The notes under the pieces are model-generated. The model was not told the origin of the DNA and did no database searches. It saw only the letters and a program-made list of their open reading frames with translations. From Escherichia coli (GTDB lineage Bacteria > Pseudomonadota > Gammaproteobacteria > Enterobacterales > Enterobacteriaceae): DNA of 64,000 nt. Each line of letters begins with the position of its first letter. The stretch's first letter is position 1. The position numbers were made by a program, and so were the translations under genes. The DNA lies in the NCBI RefSeq assembly GCF_044324785.1, contig NZ_CP172127.1; one strand, 5' to 3'. This document shows, piece by piece, positions 200 to 51,314 of the stretch.

Positions 200-258
200 T
201 TTAAAAAATTCAACAACCATAATAAATACAAATAATATATTTAATTAGCAATCAGAAA

Positions 259-2379: not shown

Positions 2380-2463
2380 TATACTTAGCGATTCATTAAC
2401 AATACAGCTTGAATAGTGTGATTTTTATAAACATTGATGACCAATGCCATGCAAATTTAAATA

Positions 2464-3795: not shown

Positions 3796-3799
3796 TGCT

Positions 3800-14949: not shown

Positions 14950-15141
14950 AATGGCTCACTCAAGCTTGCTCACGATTGATTCCAGTAACAAACCGTATTG
15001 TGTAATTATTTCTATAGCAGGTCGCTATATAGGCTTGTATACATCGAATAATTTGAAAATCAAAGAGATAGGTAGATTTTCACTCGAAAGTAGTATTACG
15101 TGTAAGTGAGGAGTAATTATTGTTCGGTATCAAAGGGAGAC

Positions 15142-15167
15142 AAAAAAAGCGCCCGCAGGCGCTTTTT
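15142..15167 (-). terminator. Rho-independent terminator downstream of serS
   Basis: caaaaaaagcgcccgcaggcgcttttt: GC-rich stem with an A-run on one side and a T-run on the other; sits between the serS stop and the dmsA upstream region. Confidence 0.6.
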
Positions 15168-15187
15168 AGATTCAGAAAAATTGGGTA

Positions 15188-31489: not shown

Positions 31490-31577
31490 GGTGAGGTGTC
31501 CGAGTGGCTGAAGGAGCACGCCTGGAAAGTGTGTATACGGCAACGTATCGGGGGTTCGAATCCCCCCCTCACCGCCA
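31490..31577 (+). tRNA. serW: tRNA-Ser (anticodon GGA)
   Basis: 88-nt sequence GGTGAGGTGTCCGAGTGGCTGAAGGAGCACGCCTGGAAAGTG...GGTTCGAATCCCCCCCTCACCGCCA with a long variable arm and an encoded CCA; adjacent to infA as serW is in K-12. Confidence 0.95.
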
Positions 31578-31726: not shown

Positions 31727-32569
31727 CTATACTGCCAGCATGTCAGGATAGTGTTTTGCGATAATATCATTCAGTCTGTCAACCAGTTCTGGTTTCCTGA
31801 ACGTGATGTGTGCGGAGCCCTTCTTAAAGTATCTGATGCTGAACATCTCATCTTCATAGTCCTCTTTACCCTGAACAGACTGGATGTGGTCATCCAGACG
31901 AAGGGTGATGTTTTCCCGGTTGTCGGGGATCGGTTTGCCGCTGAACAGGTGCAGCATTCTTTCCAGGTCGGCAAGTCGATCTACCTGGTGCCCGGTGATA
32001 AGATGAAATCCCCACCGGTCCCATCTCACCAGATTGTTGACGATAATTTTACTGCCAAATTTACAGGGGCAATTAGTTTTGTAATTCCAGCTCAATCCCC
32101 TGAAGACGTTGATCACCCCTCGCTCAAACACTTCATCTTTGTTCTGGTGCAGTTGTTCAAATGTGCTCAGAATGTTCGCTTCACTGACTTCCGGAAAATT
32201 ATCATACTCCAGTGACCGGTACCATGTATCACGGGCCTGTGCATCCATTAAGGAAAGCATCCCTGAACGTTGCATCAGGTCACGCCAGATTTCTCGGTCA
32301 AGATTCCGGGTAATGGCTTTCATTGCTGTTTCGGGTTTCTCCATCAGCCAGCAACCGCAGCGAAAATCCTGTTTCATGGCCCAGTCCGGGGCGGTTTTAC
32401 CTCCAATACTTTCTGTCATTGATGAGATTTCAGCCAGTTGCCGGATAAGTGTGTCGATTTGCAGCAGTGTACTCTTTCGTACAGCCAGAATGTGGCTGAC
32501 TGAGGTTGAGCAGATAACGTCCGTATGCCCGTTGACCACTTCCGGATGGGAGAGTGTGATTGCAGACAT
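31727..32569 (-). CDS. Island-associated DUF4942-like protein (methyltransferase-like), distal end of the CP4-44-like module
   Basis: 280 aa; resembles the protein that follows cbtA-linked genes in E. coli islands (recalled from memory, not searched). Confidence 0.6.
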   Translation of the reverse strand: MSAITLSHPEVVNGHTDVICSTSVSHILAVRKSTLLQIDTLIRQLAEISSMTESIGGKTAPDWAMKQDFRCGCWLMEKPETAMKAITRNLDREIWRDLMQRSGMLSLMDAQARDTWYRSLEYDNFPEVSEANILSTFEQLHQNKDEVFERGVINVFRGLSWNYKTNCPCKFGSKIIVNNLVRWDRWGFHLITGHQVDRLADLERMLHLFSGKPIPDNRENITLRLDDHIQSVQGKEDYEDEMFSIRYFKKGSAHITFRKPELVDRLNDIIAKHYPDMLAV

Positions 32570-32653
32570 AATTGATATTCCTTTTGGTTTATAAACGAAA
32601 ACGCCAGCCGTATTCAGGCTGGCGTCAGTGGAATGAAGTCTGGTGAGTAAGAC

Positions 32654-32851
32654 TCACCTGTTCTGTTGCAGAAGCTGCTGTTGGCGCAGGGTACGGATAT
32701 CTTCCCTGGCCTGTTCAATGCAGGGCAGCAGTGCTGCTGAATCCGTTTTATCCTCATCGTTGTCGAAGATAATCCCTGATTCGCAGTCAATATTGTCCTG
32801 CAGCCACGCAATCAGAATATCCAGCGCCGTTTCTGTGGTTAATGATTTCAT
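32654..32851 (-). CDS. Small island protein (DUF957-like)
   Basis: 65-aa acidic protein; position in the CP4-44-like gene order. Confidence 0.45.
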   Translation of the reverse strand: MKSLTTETALDILIAWLQDNIDCESGIIFDNDEDKTDSAALLPCIEQAREDIRTLRQQQLLQQNR

Positions 32852-32867
32852 GTTGTGAATTTACGGG

Positions 32868-33356
32868 TTACCAGTCGAAAGTGGGGAACCCCGGCAGACA
32901 TTCTGCGCCGGCGTCCAGATGAATGAGACTGACGCCATAACGCCGGGTGAGAGTGACGACCAGACGACGGAACGTTCTTGACAGGCCCAGGCGTTTAAGC
33001 CGCAGAACCGGGTACGACCATGCATCGGTACGTAACAGATAGCCGCTGCCTGTAAAATGAATCCATTCTGTTTCGCCGTCGTCATTAGTCTGGTGTGACA
33101 GCGAGTACAGCCAGGCGTTGTCCGTTTCCGTGATATGTGCGGTACTGCAACGTATGCCGGTAAGGGTTGTTAACGGTGGTGGTGTACTGGTTGACTGCTG
33201 GTCGGATTTATCGACCACGCGGAGTGAATAACCGTTTTCAGAGACCTTGTTAATCAGTTCAGCGAGATTAACACCATCGACGTCAACGACAATGCGCCCC
33301 ATGTTCAGCGCCTGCATGTTAATGCTGTCGGCTTCCGGCGTCAGGGAAAGGTTCAT
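32868..33356 (-). CDS. YeeW-like protein (DUF5983-like) downstream of cbtA
   Basis: 162 aa; start overlaps the cbtA stop by 4 bp, suggesting translational coupling. Confidence 0.5.
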
Positions 33357-33736
33357 TGTTTCGCCTCCTCCGGATGCTTGCCCAGGGTAATGTTATTTAC
33401 CATTCTGTAATTGTCCCGGGTCATCAGGCCGGTCGCCCTGCGAGCCCGGAGAATATCAATGCTGTTGATTAACTGAGACGACGGGGCTCCTGCGCTGAAT
33501 CCCGGCTGGTCAGTTCGTACCAGCACGTATTTTTCAACGAGAAAGTTCACCGCGTCACACAGTGAAATCCCTGCCTCAATATGCTGCTCAATCACACGTT
33601 CATCAGCGAACGGTGTGTCATTCAACGTAAGGCCATAGTGCTGGTCCAGCAGTCGGGTGAGCAGTGTCTGCCAGATTTCAACCGGAGACGGGCAGCGCGA
33701 TGCCGCCCGTACGTGTGTGTCGGGTAATGTTTTCAT
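33353..33736 (-). CDS. cbtA: Type IV toxin-antitoxin toxin CbtA (YeeV family; cytoskeleton-binding toxin)
   Basis: Start at the internal Met ([59 protein letters not shown]...), which closely matches K-12 YeeV as I recall it. Confidence 0.85.
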
Positions 33737-33812
33737 ACTGAAGGTTTTCCTGATATGCAGAGATGAAAAATGGAAAAGTGGCGTGGTGAAAGCACCAGGC
33801 CGGAGCAGAAGG

Positions 33813-34193
33813 CTATTCCGGAGGGTTACTTTCCGTTTCGGTCGCAGGATAAACAGCCAGATAAACGTAACCACAGGAGCCGAGGGTGTCGGCATCGCAG
33901 GTCAGCCCTTTCGCATACAGCGTGACGGTATGCTGATGCCGGGGATTCAGTTCACCGCTGGTGAGCATGAGTTCCAGTTGTTTCATCAGCAGTGGAAAAG
34001 CCTGGTCCAGATGGTATGCATCCGCATTGCTGAACCGGCCTCTGATACCGGCGCGGTCTGCAAGGTAATGCAACCGGTTACCCTCCTGCACCAGACGTGC
34101 CCCGAAACAGGGCGTCACGATGCAGGGCAGCCCCCACCAGGGGCGGTCTTTGTTGTCGTCGGGAAGCGTTGTCCCGGGGAGTGTGTCTGACAC
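33813..34193 (-). CDS. cbeA: Type IV toxin-antitoxin antitoxin CbeA (YeeU family)
   Basis: GTG start at 34193 gives [49 protein letters not shown]..., matching YeeU as I recall it. Confidence 0.85.
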
Positions 34194-34203
34194 GATAAAA
34201 TCC

Positions 34204-34887
34204 TCACAGAAAATCGGTGAATGATAGTTTAACGATGACGGGGCAGCCGGCGCGCAGACCGGCTTCGGTGAAGGTATATTCGTTGATGAGAAGGGCCTCA
34301 TCCACAGCGGCGTCTGAGGTCAGCCAGTCGTACTCGTTTTCCAGTTGACGGTACAACCAGAAGGCCAGGTCGCGCAGGGCTTCGCTGACTGCGGCTTCCG
34401 CATCGGTTGTCATAGCCTGACCAGTCGGACTGTTCCGGGTGACGGTGATATCCATGCAGTACGGATGGCAGTAACGTCCCCGGTGGTGGATTTCAGCCTG
34501 CAGTTGCCAGAAGTTACGCTTCTGCACCGCCTGCAGGGCATCCGCGATACGATGAAGCTCACGGTCCTGCGGGGCATACACCCCGACTCTCCTGGCTGTT
34601 GCTGACTGCCAGTGCCAGCGTCCTTCAAAACAGGCTCCGTCCCCCTGGCTGCAGAATCCGCTGAACCAGATGCACGGCTCTTCCATAAACCTGCCGTTGC
34701 TGAGCCGGATAACACGCTGGCGGAGGTCAATCCCGAAAATGCCACAGACCTCCCTGAAGTCCCCATACACGTTTTCATACCAGTTGCTGTCAGCATGATG
34801 CTGACGGTACCAGTCGCGGGCTTTTTCCTGTGCGGTGGAGGATAGCTCATTCAGTGTATACACAGTGGTGGTGATAATTCTGCTCAT
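34204..34887 (-). CDS. Hypothetical protein (227 aa), no family recognised, inserted between yeeT and cbeA
   Basis: Uninterrupted ORF tightly packed between yeeT (stop 34906) and cbeA (start 34193). I recognise no motifs. Confidence 0.5.
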   Translation of the reverse strand: MSRIITTTVYTLNELSSTAQEKARDWYRQHHADSNWYENVYGDFREVCGIFGIDLRQRVIRLSNGRFMEEPCIWFSGFCSQGDGACFEGRWHWQSATARRVGVYAPQDRELHRIADALQAVQKRNFWQLQAEIHHRGRYCHPYCMDITVTRNSPTGQAMTTDAEAAVSEALRDLAFWLYRQLENEYDWLTSDAAVDEALLINEYTFTEAGLRAGCPVIVKLSFTDFL

Positions 34888-34905
34888 CAGAGTGCCCTTA
34901 CTGAC

Positions 34906-35127
34906 TCAGTTCAGAGTGACGTTCATCAGCCGGACATACGGGCCAAAACTGTCCTTACGGCGTTCAGCAAACACGGCCAGCACACCGGGAATATCCTGCA
35001 CTTCACGACCGGTATACGCCTCAGCACTGCCGTGCCAGCGGTATTTGCCGGTACAGAAAGGAAAAAGACGGGATGCCGGATGTTGTTGGTGAATACGCAT
35101 GGCTTCACCACGGGTGATGATTTTCAT
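34906..35127 (-). CDS. yeeT: YeeT-family protein (DUF987)
   Basis: 73 aa MKIITRGEAMRIHQQHPASRLFPFCTGKYRWHGSAEAY..., matching YeeT as I recall it. Confidence 0.8.
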   Translation of the reverse strand: MKIITRGEAMRIHQQHPASRLFPFCTGKYRWHGSAEAYTGREVQDIPGVLAVFAERRKDSFGPYVRLMNVTLN

Positions 35128-35189
35128 AGTGTGATACCTCTGAAGACAGAAGATAAAAGTGCAAACAAGCGTGATGTGGTTGTGACGGG

Positions 35190-35681
35190 TTAAAGCAGAC
35201 CATGTTCGGCAAAGGAGAAAACCTGGTTGCCACCGACTATCAGATGGTCCGGCACCCGGATATCCACCAGGCCCAGTGCCTGTACCAGACGTTCCGTGAT
35301 AAGGCGGTCTGCCTTGCTGGGTGTGACTTCACCGGACGGGTGATTGTGCGCCAGCACCACGGCAGCGGCATTGTGGTACAGGGCGCGTTTAATCACTTCC
35401 CGGGGATGGACTTCCGTGCGGTTGATGGTGCCGGTGAAGAGGGTTTCACCGGCAATCAGCTGATTCTGGTTGTTCAGATACAGCACCCGGAATTCTTCAC
35501 GCTCCAGTCCCGCCATGTTCAGAATCAGCCATTCCCGTGCCGCACGGGTGGAGGTGAAGGCCACGCCGGGTTCATGAAGATGGCGGTCCAGAGTTTTCAG
35601 GGCCCGCAGAATGAGACTGCGCTCGCCGGGCGTCATCTCTCCGGGCAGAAAGGAAAGCTGCTGCATTGTCCCTGCCTCCAT
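35190..35681 (-). CDS. yeeS: RadC-like JAB-domain protein (YeeS family)
   Basis: JAB/MPN metalloprotease-like motif HNHPSGEVTPSKAD; the true start may be the Met at 35666. Confidence 0.8.
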   Translation of the reverse strand: MEAGTMQQLSFLPGEMTPGERSLILRALKTLDRHLHEPGVAFTSTRAAREWLILNMAGLEREEFRVLYLNNQNQLIAGETLFTGTINRTEVHPREVIKRALYHNAAAVVLAHNHPSGEVTPSKADRLITERLVQALGLVDIRVPDHLIVGGNQVFSFAEHGLL

Positions 35682-36167
35682 TCAGTCGATGATGCGCATA
35701 ATGGCGCTGCATTCCGGATGCTGCAGGGCGTAATCCCGCAGCCGGTAATAATGGACCGTCATGGCATAACACTCCGTACGACAGGCGTGATGACTGTACG
35801 TCATCAGACAGGCAGCAATGCCGGCAGCTTCCGGACTCATTTCAGCGCGGTTACCGTTCATGGCATTGAACAGTACCCATGTTTCGTCATCATCGTCATC
35901 CGGTTCGGGTGCCATAAATGCCCCGCCGTTGTTCAGGGTGTACAGATTCCAGATACCACCGCAGTAGTCTTCACACAGACGGTCCATCCAGCCGAAGACA
36001 CGGGGCTCCAGGGCCACCCACTGTGGAATGAGGCCAAAGTGCTGCGGCCAGAAGCTGATGCGCTGTTCATCAGGGACTATGGTGGCAACCAGCTGAGGCT
36101 GGTCATTCCCTGATGCAGCGGTTACGGAAACAGAAGGAGTGGTGGAATTATGCAAGACGGTTGTCAT
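35682..36167 (-). CDS. Antirestriction-like protein (YfjX/KlcA-like family)
   Basis: 161-aa acidic protein containing a DDDDDE stretch; position upstream of radC-like as in CP4-type modules. Confidence 0.65.
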   Translation of the reverse strand: MTTVLHNSTTPSVSVTAASGNDQPQLVATIVPDEQRISFWPQHFGLIPQWVALEPRVFGWMDRLCEDYCGGIWNLYTLNNGGAFMAPEPDDDDDETWVLFNAMNGNRAEMSPEAAGIAACLMTYSHHACRTECYAMTVHYYRLRDYALQHPECSAIMRIID

Positions 36168-36258
36168 GAGATTATTCCTTATAAAAAGTAAATGAATGGA
36201 AGAAATCCCGGGGGAAGGGACAGACGTGAGTCAGAACTGCGCTTTCAGGGAAACGGCA

Positions 36259-37077
36259 TCAGCGCATACTCTCCAGCAGCGTTTCAGCCATCACCCACAA
36301 TGCGCGGTTGAGCTTAATGTCGGTGTCGATGCTGTGAATGGCACGGGTATGGATACGTTTTCCTCTGGCACTGCGACCGGAAATCCCGCCTTTCAGCATA
36401 TTCTCCTGAATGGTCTGATAAGCACTCCACAGGTCCTTACCGTAATCCTCCCGGCGTCGTGGCGTCAGAATGTCGGCGGTGGTGACGGGCCGATGTTCGT
36501 CACCATAACGGTAAGTCAGTGCCGCCTGTGCCAGCGCCTGGCGTGCCGGTGGCGGCAGAATCAGCGACTGCATGGCATCACGCTTTTCCTCAATCCGGTC
36601 AAAAACCCCCACCACCTCGTAAGCCCCTTCAATAACTTTCTCCACCACATTTCCCCGGTGCGGAACACGCACTTCCCCCAGAGACTGACCACAGACGCAT
36701 CCGTTCTGACAGACGAACCTGAAGTAACCCGGCAGCATCTGGTAGCTGGAGGTACCGTCATGGGAGTTGAGCAGAATGATTTCAGGGACATGTTCTCCGT
36801 TTATCTCTCCGGCCCGCCGCAGACGCAGCATATGTTTTGTGTATCCCCGGCGGCCCGGGTCGCGCACACGGGTCTGGCAGGCGAAGAATGGCTGAAAGCC
36901 TTCCCGCTGCAGGCTTTCCAGTACGGTGATGGTGGGAATGTACGCATATCGTTTACTGCGGGAAGTATGCCGGTCTTCACCGAAAATACTGGGAACATAG
37001 TGCATCAGTTCTTCGTGTGTCAGCGGACGGTCACGGCGTATCTGGTTCGTATAACCAAAACGACTGGCTAGTCGCAT
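36259..37077 (-). CDS. DUF932-like island protein (YafZ family)
   Basis: 272 aa; position within the CP4-type module. The overlapping plus-strand ORF 36196-37071 is taken as an artefact. Confidence 0.65.
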   Translation of the reverse strand: MRLASRFGYTNQIRRDRPLTHEELMHYVPSIFGEDRHTSRSKRYAYIPTITVLESLQREGFQPFFACQTRVRDPGRRGYTKHMLRLRRAGEINGEHVPEIILLNSHDGTSSYQMLPGYFRFVCQNGCVCGQSLGEVRVPHRGNVVEKVIEGAYEVVGVFDRIEEKRDAMQSLILPPPARQALAQAALTYRYGDEHRPVTTADILTPRRREDYGKDLWSAYQTIQENMLKGGISGRSARGKRIHTRAIHSIDTDIKLNRALWVMAETLLESMR

Positions 37078-37403
37078 AATTTGCTCCTTATGAATGAGTT
37101 AGCGGTATAAATGAAAAAGCCGCGTCTCCCGGAGAAGACACGGCCTGACAGATGAAATGAATGACGTTTATTGTCTGAGAAGCCCTTCACTGGCGAGCTG
37201 CGTATTTTTATGGAAGGAGATCACCCAATAACCCCATCGGGATCGGGTAATAACCGGCCAGACTGTGATCGATTCAGATGCCATTTGGCAGCAAAAGAGC
37301 CTTCGGCAATAAACGTGATGTACAACCCGGCATATCTGTTACTCCCTGAAAGTAAAAGGCCCCGGTCATTATGACCGGGGCCTGAAGGGGAGTGACCTGA
37401 TTA

Positions 37404-40250
37404 TCAGAAAGTCACATTCAGCGTGGCCTGACCGTTATAGCCTTCGGCGCTGCTGCCGCTGACGCTGTGGGCATAACCGGCCTGAACGCCCAGGGTGATA
37501 TTTTCCCGGACACGGGCTTCCAGTCCGGCCTGCAGGTCCAGTGACGTGCCATTCTGGGACGGTGAGAACGTCATGTTACTGCCGGCGGCGGCTGTCCCCA
37601 TGCTCATGTCACCCCGGGAACTGAAGGTGCGGATAACAGAAGGCTGTACCCACCAGTTCACCGGCAGTTCACGCACACGGTGTTTTGCACTGTCGCGCAG
37701 GGTGTCACGGGATGAGGTGCCTTCACCAAAGCTCATATCGTTGTGGCTGCCCAGACGGAAGCCGGCACGCATATGTTGTGCACTGCCATGCCCGAACTTC
37801 ACATAACCGGCGTTATCCTGGCCGTCATCCAGGGAAAGTCCCTGCCAGGTGTACTGCAGTTGTGGTTCCAGCATCAGGTTGTCAGTGATACTGAAGGGCA
37901 GACCGGTTTCCAGTGAGCCCAGCCAGCCCCAGCCCCGGGCGCGGAAGTCGTTATTGTCCGATGACGCTTTCATGCTGTGGCGGGTTCCCTGTGCCATAAT
38001 GTCAGCCCACAGGCCGGAGGACGTGTGTACCAGATTCAGGTATCCGCCCAGGCTGCCGGCATCATCCCGGACCGTGCCGGCGCGGGAGCCGTCATCATCC
38101 TTAACATCAACGGAAGAATGGCCAGCAGCACTATATACCCCCGCGGTCACAGACATACCGGCAACCTCTGTTCTCAGCAGGTCACTCTCCAGACGGACGA
38201 AGCCATAGCTGCCGCTGCTTTCCGGCGTGGCCCCACGGGCAATACCGCCGTTGTTATCGTGACCGAGATGACCGCCCTGAATGCTGAGACGGACGCTGTT
38301 ATTTTCACCGTTTACACCGGTCTGATGGCTGCGGGAGCCTGCCAGAATCCGGTCATAGTCCATTGCCTGTGTCAGCATGGAGGCATACAGGGGGACTTCA
38401 GCACGATAAGCATTTTCACTGCGCAGGTACCAGTCTTCATCGCTGTCACGGTTCAGGGTGTAGTTAAAGGCACCGGCCTGAAGCGGGCGACTCAGGGCAA
38501 ACGCACCTTCTTCTGTGGTGGCACCATTCTGTGCATCCACAACCCGGATACCCTGTCCGGAAGTTGCCACCCCGAGGTTACTGTTTCCGACATTTGTGAA
38601 CGCAAGCCAGGTTTTGCCGGTTGCCTGACCACCATTAATCACCAGCTGGTCAGAGGCATTGCTGCCATCAAGGCGAACACGCATATTGATGGTGCCACCC
38701 TGACCGGTGAGGTTACTGGTGGTCAGTTTATGGAACGTTACCGGGGCGTCGCCTTTTGCAACAGCACGGCTCAGGACGGCATCCTGTGTCGTCTGATTAT
38801 CAAAGCGAATCTCCCCTGCGTTAACAATATCGCCGGTACTGACCACATCACCATTCAGTACCATGCTGGCGCCTTTACTGAGCTGTGTTCTGCCACTCAG
38901 ACTTCCCCCGGCAGCCAGCGTCAGTGTTCCACGATGTCCGACAGTGGTGTTGCCAGCCTGTCCCCCGGCATTAACCGTAAAGCTGCCGCCATTTTCCAGC
39001 AGCAGGCCGCTGGCCTGACCGGATATGCCATCAATACTGAACTTACCGCTGGCATTGGTCCCCTCAACAGTGGCACCACTGTCTGCAATCAGGGCACCAC
39101 CGGATGTCATGGTGACACCTGTCGCCTTACCACCGGCAGACACTGCCAGGGTACCGCCGTCATCCACCCGTGTTTTCTGCGCTGAATGACCCTCCAGTAC
39201 ATCCAGACGACCGCCGGACTCCAGAACAACACCGTCAGCCTTACCGTTTTCCACCGCGAAATTGCCCAGACGGTTGCTGCCGGTGACGGTTGCCGCCGTA
39301 CTGGTGACCAGTGCGCCTCCCTGCTTCAGGGTGACATTCGTGGCTGTACCACCGGCGTTCACCTGCAGTTTGCCTTTCTGGTTAACGGTGGTGAAATCCG
39401 CCAGACCACCTTCCTTGATAATCTGCCAGCCGTCACTGTTCACAACAGTGTCAGACGTTGTACCGCCGTTGTGTACATACTGGTTACCGCCATTCAGCGT
39501 GGTATCCAGTGCGTGGCCATGTACCGTCTGGTCGCCGCCGGCATAAACCACAGTGGTATTTGCTGTTCCTTCAACAGTCACAATCTGACGACCATTTTTA
39601 TTGATGGTGGTACGTACGGCATTTCCGCGAACAAACTGCCCGGTATCACCATTTTCTGCATCCGGTCCTCCTTCTGCGCCGGTATTCACAACGGTGTCTG
39701 TTGCCACTGCGCCGGGTTTGACGACCTGCCAGCCCTTATCATTAATGACGGTTCCTGTGGCTATCGCACCTTCATGCATCCACTGCTCGCCACCATTCAG
39801 CGTGGTGTTCAGTGCCAGTCCCTTCAGGCTTTGTCCGCCTCCTTCATTGATTATTGTGTCTGTAGCCTTTCCCCCGGCACCTACAAACTGGAGCCCGCCG
39901 CTGCTGATGGTGGTATTACTGGCTGTGCCGCCATCCTGTACCCATTGCCCGCCGGTATTGGCCTCGTTATCCGTCCCATACTCCAGCCCGGTACTGATGG
40001 TCATTCCGTTGGTCGTACCGAAGACAATCTGGTTGTCATGATTTGTCAGTGTTCCGCCGTTCACGGTTTCTCCCGCCTCTACAACCGTGTCAGCAGCCAG
40101 TGCCGGGACTGGCGTGACAGCAGCAAGAGACAGCGCAACCGCCACACCGGCGCGTTTTCCCCGTGAGCGGGCCAGTTCGGAAGCCACCACCAGGGTGCCC
40201 GTAATGTGATTCCATACCAGCCTGTAGCTGGTGTTCAGATGTCGTTTCAT
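37404..40250 (-). CDS. flu: Antigen 43 (Ag43/Flu) self-associating autotransporter adhesin
   Basis: Start taken at MKRHLNTSYRLVWNHITGTLVVASE... (extended autotransporter signal peptide); Gly/Thr-rich beta-helix passenger; C-terminal beta-barrel ending ...GQATLNVTF. The ORF-track frame extends 25 codons further upstream. Confidence 0.9.
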   Translation of the reverse strand: MKRHLNTSYRLVWNHITGTLVVASELARSRGKRAGVAVALSLAAVTPVPALAADTVVEAGETVNGGTLTNHDNQIVFGTTNGMTISTGLEYGTDNEANTGGQWVQDGGTASNTTISSGGLQFVGAGGKATDTIINEGGGQSLKGLALNTTLNGGEQWMHEGAIATGTVINDKGWQVVKPGAVATDTVVNTGAEGGPDAENGDTGQFVRGNAVRTTINKNGRQIVTVEGTANTTVVYAGGDQTVHGHALDTTLNGGNQYVHNGGTTSDTVVNSDGWQIIKEGGLADFTTVNQKGKLQVNAGGTATNVTLKQGGALVTSTAATVTGSNRLGNFAVENGKADGVVLESGGRLDVLEGHSAQKTRVDDGGTLAVSAGGKATGVTMTSGGALIADSGATVEGTNASGKFSIDGISGQASGLLLENGGSFTVNAGGQAGNTTVGHRGTLTLAAGGSLSGRTQLSKGASMVLNGDVVSTGDIVNAGEIRFDNQTTQDAVLSRAVAKGDAPVTFHKLTTSNLTGQGGTINMRVRLDGSNASDQLVINGGQATGKTWLAFTNVGNSNLGVATSGQGIRVVDAQNGATTEEGAFALSRPLQAGAFNYTLNRDSDEDWYLRSENAYRAEVPLYASMLTQAMDYDRILAGSRSHQTGVNGENNSVRLSIQGGHLGHDNNGGIARGATPESSGSYGFVRLESDLLRTEVAGMSVTAGVYSAAGHSSVDVKDDDGSRAGTVRDDAGSLGGYLNLVHTSSGLWADIMAQGTRHSMKASSDNNDFRARGWGWLGSLETGLPFSITDNLMLEPQLQYTWQGLSLDDGQDNAGYVKFGHGSAQHMRAGFRLGSHNDMSFGEGTSSRDTLRDSAKHRVRELPVNWWVQPSVIRTFSSRGDMSMGTAAAGSNMTFSPSQNGTSLDLQAGLEARVRENITLGVQAGYAHSVSGSSAEGYNGQATLNVTF

Positions 40251-40459
40251 CAGCTTTTCCTTACAGAGGGTGAATAAAAAAGCCGGTACCCACAAATGTG
40301 GATACCGGCAGGTACAAAACAGCATGGTCAGATAAAGTGGTTTTTCCCGGACATAAATGCTTCCCCTCTCTCATCCGCCAGAGAAGTATCAGTCCGTTGT
40401 GTGCAATTCCGTTCTGCATGATGAAGAGATTCAGCTGCCTTTTCGCAGACCATTAACCA

Positions 40460-40510
40460 CCATAAACGATCGATGACAACGATCGATACCTGTTTTATCG
40501 ATCGTTTTAT
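40460..40510 (-). promoter_or_regulatory. Ag43 phase-variation switch: cluster of three GATC (Dam) sites in the flu upstream region (expected OxyR-binding region)
   Basis: GATC at 40468, 40481 and 40500 within ~35 bp, 210-260 bp upstream of the flu start. Confidence 0.6.
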
Positions 40511-40621
40511 TCTATTAACAGCAAGGCAGTCACGCAAGAGAAAGAGGTGGGTATGAGGTGTTTGTATCATGTTTTCAGTTGGTTAACGCAATGTAATCAG
40601 GCATTTCCCCTGGCAGAATGT

Positions 40622-41494
40622 TCAGAAGAAAATCCAGTTCCATACAGCGCGGGCAACAGAGACCACCGTGTCACGGACGACACGCAGAACCGTACGAGCC
40701 ACAGAGGCAACACAGACGCTCTCCGCCGTGTCAAATATCCGGTCCACCGCACCGGTAAACTGTTCACGGGCCTGCCCCCGGACAGATTCCGTGCACAGCT
40801 CGTCCTGCAGGCGGGTCATCAGGGGACTGGCGGCATGGTCGGGAAGTGCTGTCATGAGCGCACTGACCAGCGTATCCAGTTCCCAGCCGGTGCGGGCCGA
40901 TACGGCCACAACCGGATGTACGGGCCGGAACAGACGGAATACCGCCTCCGTTTTTTCGCGAATGTTCTGTGCCTGTGCGGGAGAAGGCTGAATACCGGCC
41001 ATATCCCATTCATGGCAGGGCTCCGTTTTATCGGCCTGCGTCACCACAAACAGCACCTGCTGATGTCCCCGGTGCAGGATGTGTCGCCAGAAATACTCAT
41101 CCACAGACAGGGCACGGTCATCGGCTTTAATCAGCCACAGTACCAGGTCAAGTTCAGGCAGAATGTCACGGTACAGGGCTTCATACTCTGCATCCCTGTC
41201 CCGGCTCTCGCCCACCCCGGGCAGGTCAGTGATAACCATGCTGTGACCGTGGCCACTCAGACGGAAGCGCCGCACTTCCCGGGTGCCGGCGTGAACATCA
41301 CTGACCGGGGTGACCTCCCCCTGAAACAGTGCATTACAGAGTGAGGATTTACCGGCCCCGCTTTTCCCCATAATGCCAATCACGGGTTCGTGACTGGTGA
41401 GTTTACGCAGATGTTCCAGGATGTGACGGGAAAGTGAGTAAGGCAGGGAAGAAAGTGGTTTTTCAATTGCCTCAATGGCATCAGACGGATTCAT
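40622..41494 (-). CDS. YeeP/YkfA-like GTPase (50S ribosome-binding GTPase family)
   Basis: P-loop GIMGKSGAGKSSLCNALF and DLPG G3-like motif; start taken at MNPSDAIEAI... Confidence 0.75.
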   Translation of the reverse strand: MNPSDAIEAIEKPLSSLPYSLSRHILEHLRKLTSHEPVIGIMGKSGAGKSSLCNALFQGEVTPVSDVHAGTREVRRFRLSGHGHSMVITDLPGVGESRDRDAEYEALYRDILPELDLVLWLIKADDRALSVDEYFWRHILHRGHQQVLFVVTQADKTEPCHEWDMAGIQPSPAQAQNIREKTEAVFRLFRPVHPVVAVSARTGWELDTLVSALMTALPDHAASPLMTRLQDELCTESVRGQAREQFTGAVDRIFDTAESVCVASVARTVLRVVRDTVVSVARAVWNWIFF

Positions 41495-41757
41495 ACATGT
41501 ATTCCCGGTGAAAAAAGACAAAACCCCGCGCACCGGAAAGGTGGCGGGGGATTCACGGAGATAATATCTGTCTGAAATTATTTAGAATGCACCTGGTGCA
41601 CTGCAAAGGAAAGGCAATATTCCGTTCCTCCTCCTTGTCGTGAATACCCCAGGTATCTCACAATGTACACCGACTTACTCCGGGGCTGCCTGAACCACAA
41701 GATTGCTGTAGAATTGCCCCCAATGATTCAGGTCCAAACCAGGAAAATGGATTAAAA

Positions 41758-43167
41758 ATGACAAGTATTCAACAACGAGCAGAACTGCACCGCCAGATAT
41801 GGCAAATTGCCAATGATGTCAGAGGTTCTGTTGACGGATGGGATTTTAAGCAATACGTTCTGGGCGCGCTTTTCTACCGTTTTATCAGCGAAAATTTTTC
41901 CAGCTATATTGAAGCCGGTGATGACAGTATCTGTTATGCGAAACTGGATGACAGCGTAATTACTGATGACATTAAAGACGATGCCATCAAAACTAAAGGC
42001 TACTTCATCTACCCAAGTCAGCTTTTCTGCAACGTAGCTGCGAAAGCAAATACCAATGACAGACTGAATGCAGATTTAAACAGTATCTTCGTTGCTATCG
42101 AAAGTTCTGCTTACGGTTACCCTTCAGAAGCTGACATCAAAGGTTTGTTTGCTGATTTCGATACCACCAGTAACCGCCTGGGTAACACCGTTAAGGATAA
42201 AAATGCCCGCCTGGCTGCGGTTCTGAAAGGGGTTGAAGGGTTAAAACTTGGTGACTTCAACGAACATCAGATTGACCTGTTCGGCGATGCCTATGAGTTC
42301 CTGATTTCTAACTATGCGGCGAATGCTGGTAAGTCAGGCGGCGAGTTTTTTACACCGCAGCATGTCTCTAAGCTGATTGCACAACTGGCTATGCACGGGC
42401 AGACCCACGTTAACAAAATCTACGACCCAGCCGCAGGTTCCGGTTCGCTGTTGTTACAGGCGAAAAAGCAGTTTGATGACCATATCATCGAAGAAGGCTT
42501 TTTTGGTCAGGAGATCAACCATACGACCTATAACCTGGCGCGTATGAACATGTTTTTGCACAACATCAACTACGACAAGTTTGATATCAAGCTGGGCAAT
42601 ACGCTGACTGAGCCGCACTTCAGAGATGAAAAACCGTTTGATGCCATCGTTTCTAACCCGCCGTATTCAGTGAAATGGATTGGCAGCGATGACCCGACGC
42701 TGATTAACGATGAGCGTTTTGCCCCGGCTGGCGTCCTGGCCCCCAAATCAAAAGCTGACTTCGCGTTTGTATTACATGCGCTGAACTATCTTTCGGCCAA
42801 AGGTCGCGCCGCGATTGTCTGCTTCCCGGGTATTTTTTACCGTGGCGGCGCAGAGCAGAAAATCCGTCAGTATCTGGTCGATAATAACTATGTCGAAACC
42901 GTGATTTCACTGGCACCGAACCTGTTCTTTGGCACCACCATTGCCGTAAACATTCTGGTGCTGTCTAAACATAAAACGGATACCAAAGTTCAGTTTATTG
43001 ACGCCAGCGAACTGTTCAAAAAAGAGACTAACAACAATATCCTGACCGATGCCCATATCGAACAGATTATGCAGGTATTTGCCAGCAAGGAAGATGTTGC
43101 TCATCTGGCGAAATCTGTTGCGTTTGAGACTGTTGTCGCGAATGACTATAACGGCTTTGTTGAATAA
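41758..43167 (+). pseudogene. hsdM: Type I restriction-modification methyltransferase subunit HsdM (IC/EcoR124-like), 3'-truncated by IS903; no hsdR or hsdS present
   Basis: N-terminus [47 protein letters not shown]; SAM-binding motif [10 protein letters not shown]; catalytic NPPY motif ([11 protein letters not shown]). The last 4 codons plus stop (GFVE*) are encoded by the IS903 terminal repeat starting at 43153. 469 aa versus ~520 expected. Confidence 0.75.
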
Positions 43168-44209
43168 ATCAGATTTCGGGTAAGTCTCCCCCGTAGCGGG
43201 TTGTGTTTTCAGGCAATACGCACGCTTTCAGGCATACCTGCTTTCGTCATTTTGTTCAGCGCTCGTACCAGGGCCATAGCCTCCGCAACCTGACCATCGT
43301 AGTCACGCAGCGTCAGTGAACCCCCGAACAGCTGTTTTACCCGGTACATCGCCGTTTCCGCTATCGAGCGACGGTTGTAATCTGTTGTCCATTTCCACCG
43401 CGCATTACTCCCGGTCATTCGCTGATTAGCCACTGCACGGTTACGGTCTGCATATTCACCGGGCCAGTAACCCGCACCTTTTCGGGGAGGGATAAGCGCG
43501 CTGATTTTCTTACGCCGCAGTTCATCGTGACATAGCCGGGTATCGTAAGCGCCATCGGCGGCGGCTGACCTGATTTTCCGGTGGGTTTGCCGGATTAACC
43601 CGGGGAAGGCCTCTGAGTCCGTAACGTTGTTCAGCGACAGGTCAGCGCAGATGATTTCATGTGTTTTACTGTCAACGGCGAGATGCAGCTTACGCCAGAT
43701 ACGGCGGCGTTCCTGGCCATGCTTTTTGACTTTCCACTCGCCTTCACCGAAGACCTTCAGCCCGGTGGAATCAATTACCAGGTGTGCGATTTCACCCCGG
43801 GTGGGCGTTTTGAAACTGACATTAACCGACTTTGCCCGCCTGCTGACACAGCTGTAATCCGGGCAGCGTAGCGGAACGTTCATCAGAGAAAAAATGGAAT
43901 CAATAAAGCCCTGCGCAGCCCGCAGGGTCAGCCTGAATACGCGTTTAATGACCAGCACAGTAGTGATGGCAAGGTCAGAATAGCGCTGAGGTCTGCCTCG
44001 TGAAGAAGGTGTTGCTGACTCATACCAGGCCTGAATAGCTTCATCATCCAGCCAGAAAGTTATGGAGCCACGGTTGATGAGGGCTTTATTGTAGGTGGGC
44101 CAGTTGGTGATTTTGAACTTTTGCTTTGCCACGGAACGGTCTGCGTTGTCGGGAAGATACGTGATCTGATCCTTCAACTCAGCAAAAGTTCGATTTATTC
44201 AACAAAGCC
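43153..44209 (-). mobile_element. IS903-like insertion sequence (IS5 family), 1057 bp, without target-site duplication
   Basis: 18-bp terminal inverted repeats GGCTTTGTTGAATAAATC at 43153-43170 and, inverted, at 44192-44209. Length equals IS903 as I recall it. The 9-bp flanks differ (gactataac vs gttacccgc). Confidence 0.85.
43209..44132 (-). CDS. IS903 transposase (DDE)
   Basis: GTG start at 44132 gives a 307-aa product (VAKQKFKITNWPTYNKALINRGSITFWLDDEAIQAWY...); the ORF-track frame extends to 44177. Confidence 0.85.
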   Translation of the reverse strand: MAKQKFKITNWPTYNKALINRGSITFWLDDEAIQAWYESATPSSRGRPQRYSDLAITTVLVIKRVFRLTLRAAQGFIDSIFSLMNVPLRCPDYSCVSRRAKSVNVSFKTPTRGEIAHLVIDSTGLKVFGEGEWKVKKHGQERRRIWRKLHLAVDSKTHEIICADLSLNNVTDSEAFPGLIRQTHRKIRSAAADGAYDTRLCHDELRRKKISALIPPRKGAGYWPGEYADRNRAVANQRMTGSNARWKWTTDYNRRSIAETAMYRVKQLFGGSLTLRDYDGQVAEAMALVRALNKMTKAGMPESVRIA

Positions 44210-45339
44210 GTTACCCGCTCTTCAATCTCATGCAATTGATTATGCAATATCGCATTTTCATCCTTTTGCCCGGCTAATGAGTGGGTAAGCGTCTCAACTT
44301 CTTGCTGTAATGCGGAGCTCCTGGCCTGGAAAAACTCAAGTTCCTTCAGAACCCGATCTTTAAGAGAGAATAGGTACTCTTCAGCTGACAGCGTGGTGAT
44401 CCTATGATGGGCGGCGGCGATAAATTCATCATAAAAATCATCACTCTTTGCATCCAGGGCAACAACAAACTCTTTCACTTGCTGATAAAACGGGTGAAAT
44501 GCCGGACCAGAAATCGTGTTTAAATGCCACTCAAGGAACACGACAACATAGTTTTTATAATCTCTGAGACGGTGTTCCATCATCCCCTGCTGACAGATAA
44601 ACGCTTTAAGCGCCACCAATGCTTCAACAGCACAGCGGTGCGACTCTGCTCGCGTGGCGGATAGGGATTCACTACGGTTGATGGTATGAGAAATTAACGT
44701 TTCATTTAAGACCGAAATTCTGTTCGCCATGAGCATAAATGCGCAGACGAAGAAAAGATCGTTGGTCGTCCTGATTTCCTGAAAGCGAAGCTGATGACTA
44801 GTAATAAATTGACGCCTGAGAAGCTTGTCCCATGGCCACCAGACAAAGGTGCGGAAAAAGTCAGAGGGAATATCCTGGGATGAAAAAAACTTGAGATCAG
44901 GTAACAGCTCCTGGCGCACTGACCACGGCATCGGAGCATAAACCTGCAAGGCGGGATCAAAAGACTGGCTGCGACAGATAACGACATCCGCTTGTATATC
45001 GCTAGCACGTGCGTACATGCGCTCCAACATCATGTTATCGACATAATCGTCGTCATCAAGAAAAATAACGTACTCACCGGTAGCAGCATCCAACCCGATG
45101 TTTCTTGAGCCTCCCCCACCAAGATTTGTCGTGTTGTTAATGACTCTAATTCGTGAATCAGTTTCAGCCAGCGCCGAGACAATCTCTAAGGTATTATCGT
45201 CAGAACAATCGTTGACAATAATGATTTCAATATCATTTAATGTTTGCGACAAAACAGTGCTCAATGTGTCGGAAATATATCCCGCCGCATTGTGCACAGG
45301 GATAATAACGGAAACAGCTATACTCTCTTTTTCAGACAT
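44179..45339 (-). CDS. Family-2 glycosyltransferase; C-terminus replaced by IS903-derived codons
   Basis: N-terminal GT-A fold (VIIPVHNAAGYISDTLSTVLSQTLNDIEIIIVNDCSDDNT ... FLDDDD). The last 9 codons and the stop lie inside the IS903 right inverted repeat (IS boundary 44209). Confidence 0.7.
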   Translation of the reverse strand: MSEKESIAVSVIIPVHNAAGYISDTLSTVLSQTLNDIEIIIVNDCSDDNTLEIVSALAETDSRIRVINNTTNLGGGGSRNIGLDAATGEYVIFLDDDDYVDNMMLERMYARASDIQADVVICRSQSFDPALQVYAPMPWSVRQELLPDLKFFSSQDIPSDFFRTFVWWPWDKLLRRQFITSHQLRFQEIRTTNDLFFVCAFMLMANRISVLNETLISHTINRSESLSATRAESHRCAVEALVALKAFICQQGMMEHRLRDYKNYVVVFLEWHLNTISGPAFHPFYQQVKEFVVALDAKSDDFYDEFIAAAHHRITTLSAEEYLFSLKDRVLKELEFFQARSSALQQEVETLTHSLAGQKDENAILHNQLHEIEERVTALLNKSNFC

Positions 45340-45460
45340 GCAATCACCTTGACGCTTAGCTTATAAACGTAATTATATTTATTTATGGGTAGCGTTTAAT
45401 TTGTAGGTTGCCAGTTTATTAAGGATGGGTAAGATGAAAGCGACTGAGCTTCATCAAAAA

Positions 45461-46606
45461 TTACTCTTCAACAACATCACGATATGTTTTTAATGTTTTA
45501 TTAATGATCATCACACTCGAGAATTTATCTTGAATGCGTTTTCTGCCATTGATACCCATTGCGACGCGCGTTTCTGGGTTATCCAACAGGAAACCGAGTT
45601 TCTCCGCTAATTCCTCGACAGATTTACTTTTTACAATCAACCCATTATAGTTATTGATAATTAAGCTATCACAGCCACCAACATCATAAGCGATACAAGC
45701 GCGCCCGACAGAGGAAGCTTCCAGCAAGATACGCGGTACGCCTTCGGCGTAGACCGACGGCAAAGCAACGATATTTGATTCTTCAATTAAATCAAATACA
45801 TTAGAGCAATGACCGAGCCAGTTAATCACGCCTTCGCTTTGCCACTTCTGTATCGTCGCCAGCGGAATTGCGTCTTTATCATTCTCAACTAAAATACCGG
45901 CAACATTCAGCGTAAAGTGAATATTTTTATTACTCAGTATTTTTTTGGCTTCAATCAGGTCACCCAGTCCTTTACTCCACAGCATACGGCTGGCAAAAAG
46001 GACGACCGGAACATCACGCTGCTGCTCCAGAGAGTATTTGTAAATCTCTGGATTAATACCCGCGCCATCAATAACAATAGTCTGTTTGTAATCGATACCA
46101 ACCAGATCGGCAAGTTTAGCTCTGTCTTTATCATGTTCGAACATAAACAAACTGCATTTGTTACTGGCGATATACTTATATGCCATAACAGTAAAACTTC
46201 GCAGCAGCTTAAGACAGGCAGACTCTGCGGAAAATACTCGGCCCAAACCGACAAAACTCAGAATAACAGGACGATGGGTACTTTTAGCCAGAAAACCGCC
46301 GATCAAACAGGGCTTGATGGTAATGCAGTGCAACAAATCTGGATTGATGTTTTGAATAATTTTCCGAGCCTTAGAAAAGGCCCGAAAGAAAATCAAAACG
46401 TTGAATGATTGGGCGACAAGTGGAATGTTATGGCAAACAAAACCTAATGTCCTGAATTTTTCCGCTATTTTATCATCGACAAAATGGCTAATAATGTGAA
46501 TCTCATAACCGGCATCTCGGGCGGCAATTGCACGATCGGTCCAATGCAAATCAAAATACCAATCCGAATTTATGAAATAACACAGTTTTTTCATTGCTAT
46601 GTCCAC
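45461..46606 (-). CDS. wbbO: GT4-family glycosyltransferase, WbbO-like (galactosyltransferase of D-galactan I pathway)
   Basis: 381 aa; GT-B C-terminal signature EGVPRILLEASSVGRACIAYDVGG; position matches the last gene of the Klebsiella wzm-wzt-wbbM-glf-wbbN-wbbO order. Confidence 0.75.
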   Translation of the reverse strand: MDIAMKKLCYFINSDWYFDLHWTDRAIAARDAGYEIHIISHFVDDKIAEKFRTLGFVCHNIPLVAQSFNVLIFFRAFSKARKIIQNINPDLLHCITIKPCLIGGFLAKSTHRPVILSFVGLGRVFSAESACLKLLRSFTVMAYKYIASNKCSLFMFEHDKDRAKLADLVGIDYKQTIVIDGAGINPEIYKYSLEQQRDVPVVLFASRMLWSKGLGDLIEAKKILSNKNIHFTLNVAGILVENDKDAIPLATIQKWQSEGVINWLGHCSNVFDLIEESNIVALPSVYAEGVPRILLEASSVGRACIAYDVGGCDSLIINNYNGLIVKSKSVEELAEKLGFLLDNPETRVAMGINGRKRIQDKFSSVMIINKTLKTYRDVVEE

Positions 46607-48666
<2,060 letters not shown>

Positions 48667-50559: not shown

Positions 50560-50573
50560 CTTATTACCAATTA

Positions 50574-51314
50574 TTAAGCCATTGCTTGCTTGTAAAGTTC
50601 AATGATTCTCTCTGCTGAGCCAATTTCGCGGAGTTTATGGTTTTCGATCCAAACAACTCTGTCACAGATTTTTTCAACATCACTCATATTGTGGCTAACG
50701 AATAATATCGTTACACCCTTATTTTTGAAGTCTCGTATTGTTTGTATACATTTGGCCTGGAACGAAATGTCACCGACAGCAAGTACCTCATCGATAATAA
50801 GTATATCGGGTTCTACCTGGCTGATGACAGAGAATCCAAGCTTCGCAAGCATACCACTTGAGTACACGCGAATAGGTTCGTCAATGAAATCACCCAGCTC
50901 GGAGAACTCAATTATCCGATCCATCCGTTGCTGAACCTCTTTGCGGCGTAGCCCAAGCAGGGTCGCATTGAGATAAATATTTTCTCGCCCGGTTAATTCA
51001 GGGTGAAAACCGCCGCCTAGCTCAAGCATTGAGGCAACGCGTCCCTGGGTTGTAACAGTGCCTTTTGTAGGCTTAATGACGCCGGCCACCAGCCCGAGGG
51101 AGGTACTTTTCCCTGCGCCGTTACGACCAATCAGCGCTACGGCCTCGCCTTTACCCACGGTGAAGGTAATGTCTTCGATCGCAAGATATTTACGCCCTTT
51201 TAACAGCTGAAAAGCTCTTTTAGGGTGAAATACGAGATCCTTAATTCCTGAGCCAATATGGTGGTAAAGAGGATACTCTTTCGTAACGTGACTAAAGTTT
51301 ATTACTGGTTCCAT
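50574..51314 (-). CDS. wzt: O-polysaccharide ABC transporter ATP-binding protein Wzt (short form, no carbohydrate-binding extension)
   Basis: 246 aa; Walker A GRNGAGKST, signature YSSGMLAKL, Walker B ILIIDE. Confidence 0.9.
   Translation of the reverse strand: MEPVINFSHVTKEYPLYHHIGSGIKDLVFHPKRAFQLLKGRKYLAIEDITFTVGKGEAVALIGRNGAGKSTSLGLVAGVIKPTKGTVTTQGRVASMLELGGGFHPELTGRENIYLNATLLGLRRKEVQQRMDRIIEFSELGDFIDEPIRVYSSGMLAKLGFSVISQVEPDILIIDEVLAVGDISFQAKCIQTIRDFKNKGVTILFVSHNMSDVEKICDRVVWIENHKLREIGSAERIIELYKQAMA

Follow-up and report, generated by a model that had tools for sequence, protein, structure and literature searches.

A short-class agn43 (flu) allele of Escherichia coli with a three-GATC cluster and a predicted OxyR site upstream

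Results

Gene and domain organisation

The minus strand of the window, which is the whole 64-kb stretch of E. coli DNA that was analysed, carries an intact agn43/flu coding sequence of 948 codons and a stop codon, free of frameshifts and internal stops. In E. coli, antigen 43 (Ag43) drives the clumping of cells, the formation of biofilms and persistence; the Dam/OxyR switch of agn43 is the textbook case of bacterial epigenetic inheritance. To judge from its sequence, the locus is a complete, functional-looking agn43 on a horizontally acquired island beside a tRNA-Ser gene. The gene and its surroundings are laid out as follows.

37404..40250, minus: CDS agn43/flu, Ag43/Cah family autotransporter adhesin, class C4 (ORF, Pfam, NF033177)
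40095..40250, minus: extended signal peptide (ESPR), aa 1-52 (PF13018 at aa 6-50; aligned with K-12 and with the Ag43 table in the literature)
38412..40094, minus: passenger (beta-helix SL-EJ-BL) and autochaperone, aa 53-613 (gapless alignment to PDB 7KO9)
37407..38411, minus: linker and beta-barrel translocator, aa 614-948 (PF03797 at aa 690-924; similarity to K-12 Flu)
37357..37383, minus: intrinsic terminator right after the flu stop codon (12-bp stem, 9 GC pairs, T run)
40622..41494, minus: upstream YeeP-like GTPase gene, intact, a pseudogene in K-12 (genomic context)

The open reading frame was called as 973 aa (37404..40325, minus), and the length of 948 aa is counted from the conserved MKRHLNT start at 40250. 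Residues 1-948 align with positions 1-948 of the NCBIfam equivalog model auto_Ag43 (NF033177, profile length 948), with a score of 1958.4 bits against a cut-off of 1200. The order of Pfam domains from N to C terminus, namely ESPR (PF13018), AIDA (PF16168, six stretches), AC_1 (PF18883) and Autotransporter (PF03797), is that of a type Va autotransporter. The protein matches RefSeq WP_000820472.1, from E. coli SMS-3-5, at 100% identity, and several complete E. coli genomes, all of which annotate it as Ag43/Cah, contain identical DNA (100%), upstream region included. The allele is real but ordinary, of a kind already known and catalogued, and that the copy is intact matters only for the annotation of the source strain.

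An earlier note on this DNA, made from the letters alone, had described a flu homologue of about 948 aa, shorter than that of K-12, and this length was confirmed (948 versus 1039 aa). It had also called the gene a variant; a homologue it is, but not an oddity, since 948 aa is the standard length of the short class (SF-II, C4) and of the NCBI model itself. The internal frameshift that the note had reckoned with as a possible objection is not present, and a passenger of solved structure can be aligned to this one with no gap.

Membership of the short-passenger class

By its sequence features, the 948-aa protein belongs to the known short-passenger subfamily with the organisation SL1b-EJ2-BL2-AC1, class C4 of Ageorges 2023. 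The short lower arm of this class (EJ2-BL2), which is present here and gives a passenger of about 430 rather than about 500 aa, accounts for the 948 instead of 1039 residues. In the published Ag43 table, the C4 row VAEP_399.163 has an N terminus identical to that of the present allele over the part that the table shows, and the distinctive SL peptide of the allele (SSGGLQFVGAGGKATDTIINEGGGQ...) also occurs in the part of the C4 prototype row shown, which points to an SL1b-type stem. No entry for SMS-3-5 or WP_000820472 was found in the supplementary Ag43 table, in which peptide searches did match rows. The C4 prototype WP_014640065.1 (ETEC H10407; Ageorges 2019, 2023) shares the SL1b peptide, the EJ2-BL2 arm and the length of 948 aa, and no substantial difference from it appears over the available part of its sequence.

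Alleles of 948 aa have been published for E24377A and Nissle (PMC3232201, PMC11056357), and the H10407 copy was given as 973 aa, equal to the over-long reading frame here (PMC3232201). Cell aggregation was reported for C4 proteins in Ageorges 2019; for Nissle Ag43c (948 aa), one report found no cell aggregation (PMC11056357).

The passenger aligns without gaps to that of Ag43-UTI89 from UPEC (PDB 7KO9, residues 53-613; 91.8% identity), and over aa 52-613 it also aligns gaplessly to Cah/Ag43 of EHEC EDL933 (PDB 7KOH), so that its fold is probably the L-shaped beta-helix of the solved Ag43 structures. With both of these EJ2-BL2 proteins, identity reaches 96-97% in the elbow, bottom arm and autochaperone. 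In contrast, the N-terminal tip (aa 52-150, the first 100 or so passenger residues, which hold the self-association interface) is only 78% identical to that of UTI89, and partner specificity may therefore differ; it is in this tip that the SL peptide shared with the C4 prototype lies. K-12 Flu (b2000; 1039 aa, class C1, EJ1-BL1), whose gene also lies behind a YeeP-like GTPase gene, has the same signal peptide and is 72% identical overall; its C-terminal 400 aa, the beta-domain, are 91% identical, and the 91-residue difference is restricted to the EJ/BL region.

GATC cluster and predicted OxyR site

The elements found or predicted between the GTPase gene and the flu start codon are listed in the direction of transcription.

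40532..40537, minus: -35 hexamer TTGCGT, 17-nt spacer (K-12 has TTGTCC at the same position)
40469..40515, minus: predicted OxyR site, half-sites ATAGAATAAAACGAT and ATCGTTGTCATCGAT, centres 32 bp apart (consensus match)
40509..40514, minus: -10 hexamer TAGAAT, identical in K-12, 5 nt 5' of GATC-I
40269..40505, minus: leader RNA, IsrC-like transcript (Rfam RF00124, IS102; 71.6 bits, gathering score 46)
40500..40503, no strand: GATC-I; the minus-strand G at 40503 is the predicted transcription start, by homology to the K-12 isrC annotation
40481..40484, no strand: GATC-II, spacing as in K-12
40468..40471, no strand: GATC-III, spacing as in K-12
40251..40325, minus: 25 codons that precede the true start in frame (giving the 973-aa frame), with no Shine-Dalgarno sequence and overlapping the leader terminator
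40274..40309, minus: intrinsic leader terminator with a 12-bp stem at 40282-40309, followed by a T run (as in K-12 isrC, one base different)
40257..40262, minus: Shine-Dalgarno sequence AAGGAA before the ATG at 40250 (identical in K-12)

The three GATCs lie 221-253 nt 5' of the ATG with a spacing of 19 and 13, equal to that of K-12. This 19/13 geometry is common to K-12 and five further flu alleles, a sixth (SCU-101) having lost GATC-II from the set, and it occurs only once in the 64-kb window. No further GATC occurs within 3.2 kb to one side or within 2.0 kb to the other. The regulatory region of O157, 88% identical, has an identical set of three GATCs.

Comparison with the OxyR consensus (ATAGnTnnnAnCTAT-N17-ATAGnTnnnAnCTAT) revealed a match at 16 of 20 positions at 40469-40515, the best in the 64 kb (the next scored 14/20), in which each GATC overlaps an ATAG/CTAT arm of the predicted half-sites. 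Seven alleles score 16-17/20, with variation confined to unspecified positions: in the second half-site, the three bases between the arms read GTC, TAT, GCT, TCC, TCT or AAT depending on the allele, and the specified bases are constant. With a half-site spacing of 22 bp the best score was only 13/20 (10/20 for the K-12 register applied here), so that the OxyR call depends on the 32-bp geometry, that of reduced OxyR. The reading of a weak OxyR site, suggested by the 22-bp score, was dropped once the 32-bp spacing gave 16/20, unique in the window. The half-site centres of opvAB are likewise 32 bp apart (PMC4856963). Thus the upstream three-GATC switch that the earlier note had called intact does have its sites in place (40468, 40481 and 40500), and the OxyR similarity whose absence that note would have counted against itself is there. 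The genes dam and oxyR are absent from the 64-kb window.

The -10 hexamer and the AAAAC spacer are kept across the alleles compared, and the -10 box, GATC spacing and OxyR half-sites are all as in K-12. A generic promoter scan missed the agn43 promoter, because its -35 box matches the consensus at only 3 of 6 positions. A sigma-70 start at the G of the first GATC is predicted from the conserved -10 box and spacing, and K-12 isrC is annotated from that G. The 15 nt between GATC-I and GATC-II have few bases in common with K-12.

Leader RNA and start codon

The RF00124 match covers model positions 1-206 and takes in both the hairpin of the GATC box at the 5' end and the terminator at the 3' end; in a control, K-12 isrC scored 252.6 bits with this model, at its annotated position. 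From the predicted start to the ATG the leader measures 253 nt, versus 222 nt in K-12 (isrC, b4435). The terminator hairpin and the Shine-Dalgarno sequence are alike in the two leaders, whereas their middle parts, from the GATC box to the terminator, show no relationship, so that results obtained on the K-12 leader may not transfer. Of 5426 E. coli genomes, 3445 have the leader and regulatory type seen here, which is thus the majority type, the K-12 type being the minority; the mechanistic work cited below was done on K-12.

The 25 upstream codons are probably untranslated. Use of the ATG at 40325, either as the true start or for a leader peptide that melts the terminator, was rejected, as it has no ribosome-binding site and is missing from the K-12 leader.

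Discussion

Expected mode of switching

We favour, with a probability of about 0.88, an intact class C4 agn43 with the classical Dam/OxyR phase-variable expression; by analogy with K-12, phase variation at this locus is very likely. Transferred from the mechanism described in K-12 (PMC3764049, PMC4872104, PMC2909390, PMC5389530), transcription would start at the G of the first GATC, from the sigma-70 promoter TTGCGT-17-TAGAAT. Reduced OxyR would bind the two half-sites 32 bp apart, which overlap all three GATCs as well as the -10 box, and block transcription (OFF). Methylation of the GATCs by Dam after replication would exclude OxyR and turn the gene ON, and both states would be heritable. Within the 253-nt leader, transcripts would then have to pass an intrinsic terminator, and those ending there would be the IsrC-like RNA. 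The protein made in the ON state is expected to act as a type Va self-associating autotransporter, with ESPR, L-shaped beta-helix passenger, autochaperone and beta-barrel, whose passenger would bind the identical protein on adjacent cells and so lead to clumping and biofilm. The strain probably yields mixed ON and OFF populations, which have to be allowed for whenever aggregation or biofilm is measured from single colonies (PMC3764049).

The Salmonella gtr and opvAB switches likewise have OxyR half-sites that contain GATC, at a spacing consistent with reduced OxyR, and half-sites limited to 8/10, since the GATC would be lost from a half-site that matched the consensus perfectly (PMC2909390, PMC4856963). 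They differ in that they have four GATCs and, 5' of the promoter, alternative sites for activation and for repression, whereas agn43 here has a single predicted site for repression, which spans the -10 box and the start of transcription.

Alternative readings

The gene could be intact and its switch not behave as in K-12, being fixed in the ON or the OFF state or controlled in another way, since this allele departs from the K-12 sequences used in all the mechanistic experiments in its promoter, in the interval from GATC-I to GATC-II and in its leader. The -35 box that matches at 3/6, the 15 nt with little likeness to K-12 and the unrelated middle of the leader speak for this, as does plasmid curing in Nissle, after which expression changed in the 948-aa copy only (PMC11056357), an outcome that may reflect allele-specific control or the picking of ON colonies. 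However, the OxyR positions specified by the consensus and the GATC geometry stay constant in otherwise diverged alleles, which indicates selection on the site, and the regulatory type concerned is that of the E. coli majority. We regard such a departure from the K-12 mode as improbable.

That the three GATCs came together by chance in AT-rich intergenic DNA and play no part in regulation might be argued from the frequency of such groups: the window has three triplets within 36 bp, where about one is expected (P=0.09), so that they are not rare per se. This reading is effectively refuted by the comparative data, as no other triplet in the window has the 19/13 spacing, which recurs at K-12 and five further flu alleles, the GATC-free flanks are kilobases long, and the best OxyR match in 64 kb falls at the same place.

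Effectively refuted as well is a decaying pseudogene or truncated Ag43, with 91 residues deleted and the plus-strand ORFs as the real genes: the protein is shorter than K-12 Flu and the antisense ORFs are longer than expected, but members of the short class have been published with 948 aa, the match to the family model is full-length, the crystallised passenger aligns without gaps, and the antisense frames are interrupted in related alleles.

These plus-strand ORFs (37977..39185 and 39186..40166; 402 and 326 aa) lie in the codon-aligned antisense frame of flu and exceed the length that average codon usage would predict (P about 0.003). In that frame a stop arises solely from a sense TTA, CTA or TCA codon, and it stays open because these are rare in flu (7 TCA, no TTA and no CTA; CTG makes up 62 of the 73 Leu codons). 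Close alleles have antisense stops at codons 47 and 130, and another has one at codon 700, so that the frames are not conserved. The earlier note was thus right to take the ORFs for artefacts; the Gly/Thr richness that it gave as the cause contributes, the precise cause being the scarcity of codon-aligned stops.

GATC content of the island module and a second triplet

The whole island module is short of GATC at synonymous sites, with 3 observed versus 28 expected. The flu coding sequence had no GATC in any of the six intact alleles examined, K-12 among them, and neither had the flu-linked GTPase gene at five of six loci, versus 3-4 GATCs in the flu-less K-12 paralogues. Synonymous-site selection may keep this zone free so that the switch GATCs are the only Dam, SeqA or MutH targets for several kb, which would stabilise the inheritance of the methylation state; we hold this to be unlikely. 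A more mundane reading is element-wide avoidance, because GATC is scarce in the flu-less sister modules CP4-57 and CP4-6 too, and mobile elements of E. coli have already been reported to contain GATC-free stretches (PMC4659465). The same two modules make it less likely that the GATC desert is due to insulation of the switch alone.

A second GATC triplet, at 37219-37270, is the scar of an IS21-family end. A role as a second epigenetic switch before the DUF932 gene was considered and rejected, since the stretch matches the outer terminal repeats of ISEc12 (IS21 family) at 89% identity. It stops at precisely the point where two unrelated plasmid copies of this IS stop, and it interrupts a DUF905 pseudogene.

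The flu locus is a known Ag43 locus of the short class

The flu (agn43) locus, on the minus strand, is already known: a textbook case in the commonest allelic form, for which annotation, classification and structural representatives exist. The earlier note had described an Ag43 variant with an intact three-GATC phase-variation switch, and both its observation and its interpretation hold at this locus. The coding features are:

37404..40325, minus: long ORF of 973 aa (ORF scan)
40257-40262, minus: AAGGAA, a good ribosome-binding site for the start at 40250

The first 25 codons of the 973-aa ORF lie upstream of the conserved MKRHLNTSYRLVWNH... start at 40250, and counted from there the protein has 948 aa, as first estimated. 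The published length of the H10407 copy, 973 aa, corresponds to the same over-long ORF. Pfam detected an ESPR signal peptide, six AIDA repeat stretches, the autochaperone AC_1 and the beta-barrel, which is the full type Va autotransporter layout, and the NCBIfam Ag43/Cah equivalog NF033177 (948 positions, cut-off 1200) covered residues 1 to 948 with 1958 bits. The gene and its upstream region (3.35 kb) have exact matches (100% identity) in several complete E. coli genomes. One of these is SMS-3-5, where the annotation of the gene reads Ag43/Cah family autotransporter adhesin (WP_000820472.1). Of 5426 complete E. coli genomes, 4240 have related sequence.

Compared to K-12 Flu (1039 aa), the protein is 72% identical with both ends highly conserved, and all 91 absent residues belong to the middle and lower passenger. 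Ag43 proteins have been sorted into two subfamilies (PMC6668479, PMC10058404): classes C1 and C3 are long (EJ1-BL1), whereas classes C2 and C4 to C6 are short (EJ2-BL2), their passenger measuring about 430 aa. The difference between 948 and 1039 aa is this published division, and 948-aa alleles are found in the published lists for ETEC E24377A and Nissle 1917 (Ag43c). No frameshift was found in flu, and passenger plus autochaperone (aa 52-613) align without gaps to the crystal-structure sequence of UTI89 Ag43 (7KO9, 91.8% identity), as well as to EDL933 Cah (7KOH). The elbow, bottom arm and autochaperone are 96-97% identical to UTI89 Ag43, but the first hundred passenger residues just 78%. The N-terminal passenger stretch holds the peptide SSGGLQFVGAGGKATDTIINEGGGQ, which also occurs in the C4 prototype (Ageorges 2023), and a C4-labelled row in Table S1 of that study agrees with the window allele in its N-terminus, over the part shown there. 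The window flu is thus an already catalogued C4 allele, neither truncated nor a novel variant.

Two plus-strand ORFs across the gene had been dismissed as artefacts, and the codon content of flu bears this out:

37977..39185, plus: antisense ORF of 402 aa
39186..40166, plus: antisense ORF of 326 aa

Both use the antisense frame that has codon boundaries in common with flu, in which stops arise solely opposite sense TTA, CTA or TCA. These codons are rare in flu (seven TCA, no TTA, no CTA; CTG encodes 62 of 73 leucines), and about 22 stops would be expected at average E. coli usage. Closely related 948-aa alleles have extra antisense stops at codons 47 and 130, and at codon 700 in one of them. 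Therefore, the antisense frames are not conserved.

The switch region has K-12 geometry and a predicted OxyR site

The features upstream of the start are:

40500, 40481 and 40468: GATC-I, GATC-II and GATC-III, the switch sites upstream of flu (sequence scan)
40269-40505, minus: IS102 (IsrC) leader, Rfam, 71.6 bits (gathering score 46)
40274-40309, minus: leader terminator, a 12-bp hairpin and T run, just 5' of the ribosome-binding site

The gene-strand order is TTGCGT-17 nt-TAGAAT-AAAAC-GATC-15 nt-GATC-9 nt-GATC. The three-GATC cluster is thus present with K-12 geometry, the -10 box, AAAAC and 19/13 GATC spacing being common to K-12 flu and the window allele; in K-12, the annotated isrC RNA starts at the G of the first GATC. 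Five more alleles (O157:H7, O55:H7 and three other strains) have the same geometry. Three GATC triplets within 36 bp were observed in the window versus about one expected (P=0.09), so that such a triplet alone is not significant; the 19/13 pattern occurs a single time in the 64 kb. In the agn43 promoter of E. coli C3728, the -10 box is TAGAAC for TAGAAT, with the conserved last T lost and the OxyR-specified positions intact, which may weaken the promoter in that strain.

At the classical half-site spacing of 22 bp, the OxyR consensus reaches only 13/20 in the switch region. Half-site centres are 32 bp apart in the Salmonella Dam/OxyR switch opvAB (PMC4856963), and the spacing at gtr is described as fitting reduced OxyR (PMC2909390). 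With 32-bp spacing, the predicted OxyR site at 40469-40515 scored 16/20, the best on both strands of the window (runner-up 14/20); the OxyR similarity on which the earlier note had made its reading depend is found around the GATC cluster. Predicted half-site one, ATAGAATAAAACGAT, overlaps the -10 box and GATC-I, while the arms of predicted half-site two, ATCGTTGTCATCGAT, are GATC-II and GATC-III; with both GATCs kept, the ceiling for this second half-site is 8/10. The score was 16 or 17 in all seven alleles compared, and these differ within the site at unspecified positions only (at the centre of the second half-site they have the triplet GTC, TAT, GCT, TCC, TCT or AAT), which is what purifying selection on the site would predict. 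OxyR binding, methylation sensitivity and actual switching at the window locus would follow by extension from K-12 work.

Upstream of a 1040-aa agn43, E. coli SCU-101 (L008, ~3240-3290) carries CAATAG instead of GATC-II in a K-12-like allele, which leaves two GATCs in the switch and raises the OxyR consensus match to 17/20. Possibly, this is a naturally occurring variant whose switching is altered and biased towards OFF.

In a K-12 control, the Rfam IS102 model matched the annotated isrC with 252.6 bits. The GATC box and terminator hairpin are common to both leaders, whereas the ~150 nt from one to the other are unrelated to the K-12 leader, and the length is 253 nt versus 222 nt in K-12. Expression of K-12 flu is said to be under antitermination control of the leader, in the passage of PMC5389530 that cites Wallecha 2014. 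In 3445 of 5426 genomes, the window leader type was present along 80% or more of its length, and only its last 64 nt were matched in K-12-type genomes; it is the common type in E. coli.

GATC avoidance extends over the island module

The module (32115-44162) contains 7 GATCs versus 44 expected from trinucleotide frequencies. GATC is its most depleted tetramer (0.16, versus 0.85 in neighbouring core genes), and eleven consecutive genes have none. When synonymous codons were shuffled per gene, 27.9 GATCs were expected in twelve coding sequences versus 3 observed, and none of 2000 shuffles of the module gave fewer than 15; for core genes, 75 were expected and 74 observed. No GATC was observed in flu (5.7 expected) or K-12 flu (8.6 expected), nor in the flu coding sequence of any of the six intact alleles examined. 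The flu-less K-12 sister modules CP4-57 and CP4-6 are GATC-poor too, less completely, and GATC-free stretches have been reported in E. coli mobile elements (Forde 2015, PMC4659465). Therefore, GATC avoidance is real and mostly element-wide.

The interval between flu and the DUF932 gene contains:

37198-37255: 58-bp ISEc12-like (IS21 family) terminal-repeat scar
37168-37197 and 37305-37333: DUF905 (YkfF-like) gene remnants, split and frameshifted by the scar
37117-37146 and 37357-37383: two terminator-like hairpins

A GATC triplet at 37219, 37241 and 37267 was ruled out as a second switch, being an IS21-family terminal-repeat remnant. The scar shares ~89% identity with the ends of IS copies on two plasmids (L004, L005), and intact ISEc12 ends carry one GATC about every 23 bp (comparison locus L003, 8162-8231). 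A DUF905 gene or pseudogene occupies the equivalent place in other strains (L003 4571-4766, L009 6427-6622). In a Nissle study, fluC and the downstream yfjQ (DUF932) increased together (PMC11056357); this is a hint of read-through from ON-phase flu into the module, despite the two hairpins.

The island and the wider window

The island in which flu lies adjoins a tRNA-Ser gene (31490-31574) at its 3' end. Read along the flu strand, from upstream of flu towards the tRNA, the module has the order GTPase, flu, DUF932, antirestriction, RadC/JAB, DUF987, YeeU/CbtA, followed by other genes. The end of the island that faces the tRNA is the flu end and not an integrase end. The module adjoins the tRNA-Ser gene beside infA-aat-cydCD in the window and SMS-3-5, and lies beside ghrA-ycdX-csg in CFSAN061769, which suggests that two tRNA-Ser loci have undergone exchange or inversion.

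The type I restriction-modification M subunit gene is shortened (469 aa, versus 523 aa in SMS-3-5) and is adjoined by an IS903B-like element (41758-43167 and 43153-44177). The IS-rich segment of SMS-3-5 and CFSAN061769 (pyruvyl transferase, large glycosyltransferase) is absent from the window. At 44179-52093, past the IS, follows a polysaccharide cluster of the ABC-transporter type (permease, RfbB ATPase, DUF4422, the UDP-galactopyranose mutase gene glf, three glycosyltransferases), which we take to resemble galactan-type O-antigen loci and whose ORF sizes agree with the CFSAN061769 annotation (L010 1-7486).

In the core-genome part, Rfam matched the enterobacterial sRNA STnc130 at 15040-15174, plus strand (140 bits). 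Positions 1-8000 have a low G+C content (0.35-0.36) and three large minus-strand ORFs of 706, 443 and 782 aa, and are probably another acquired region.
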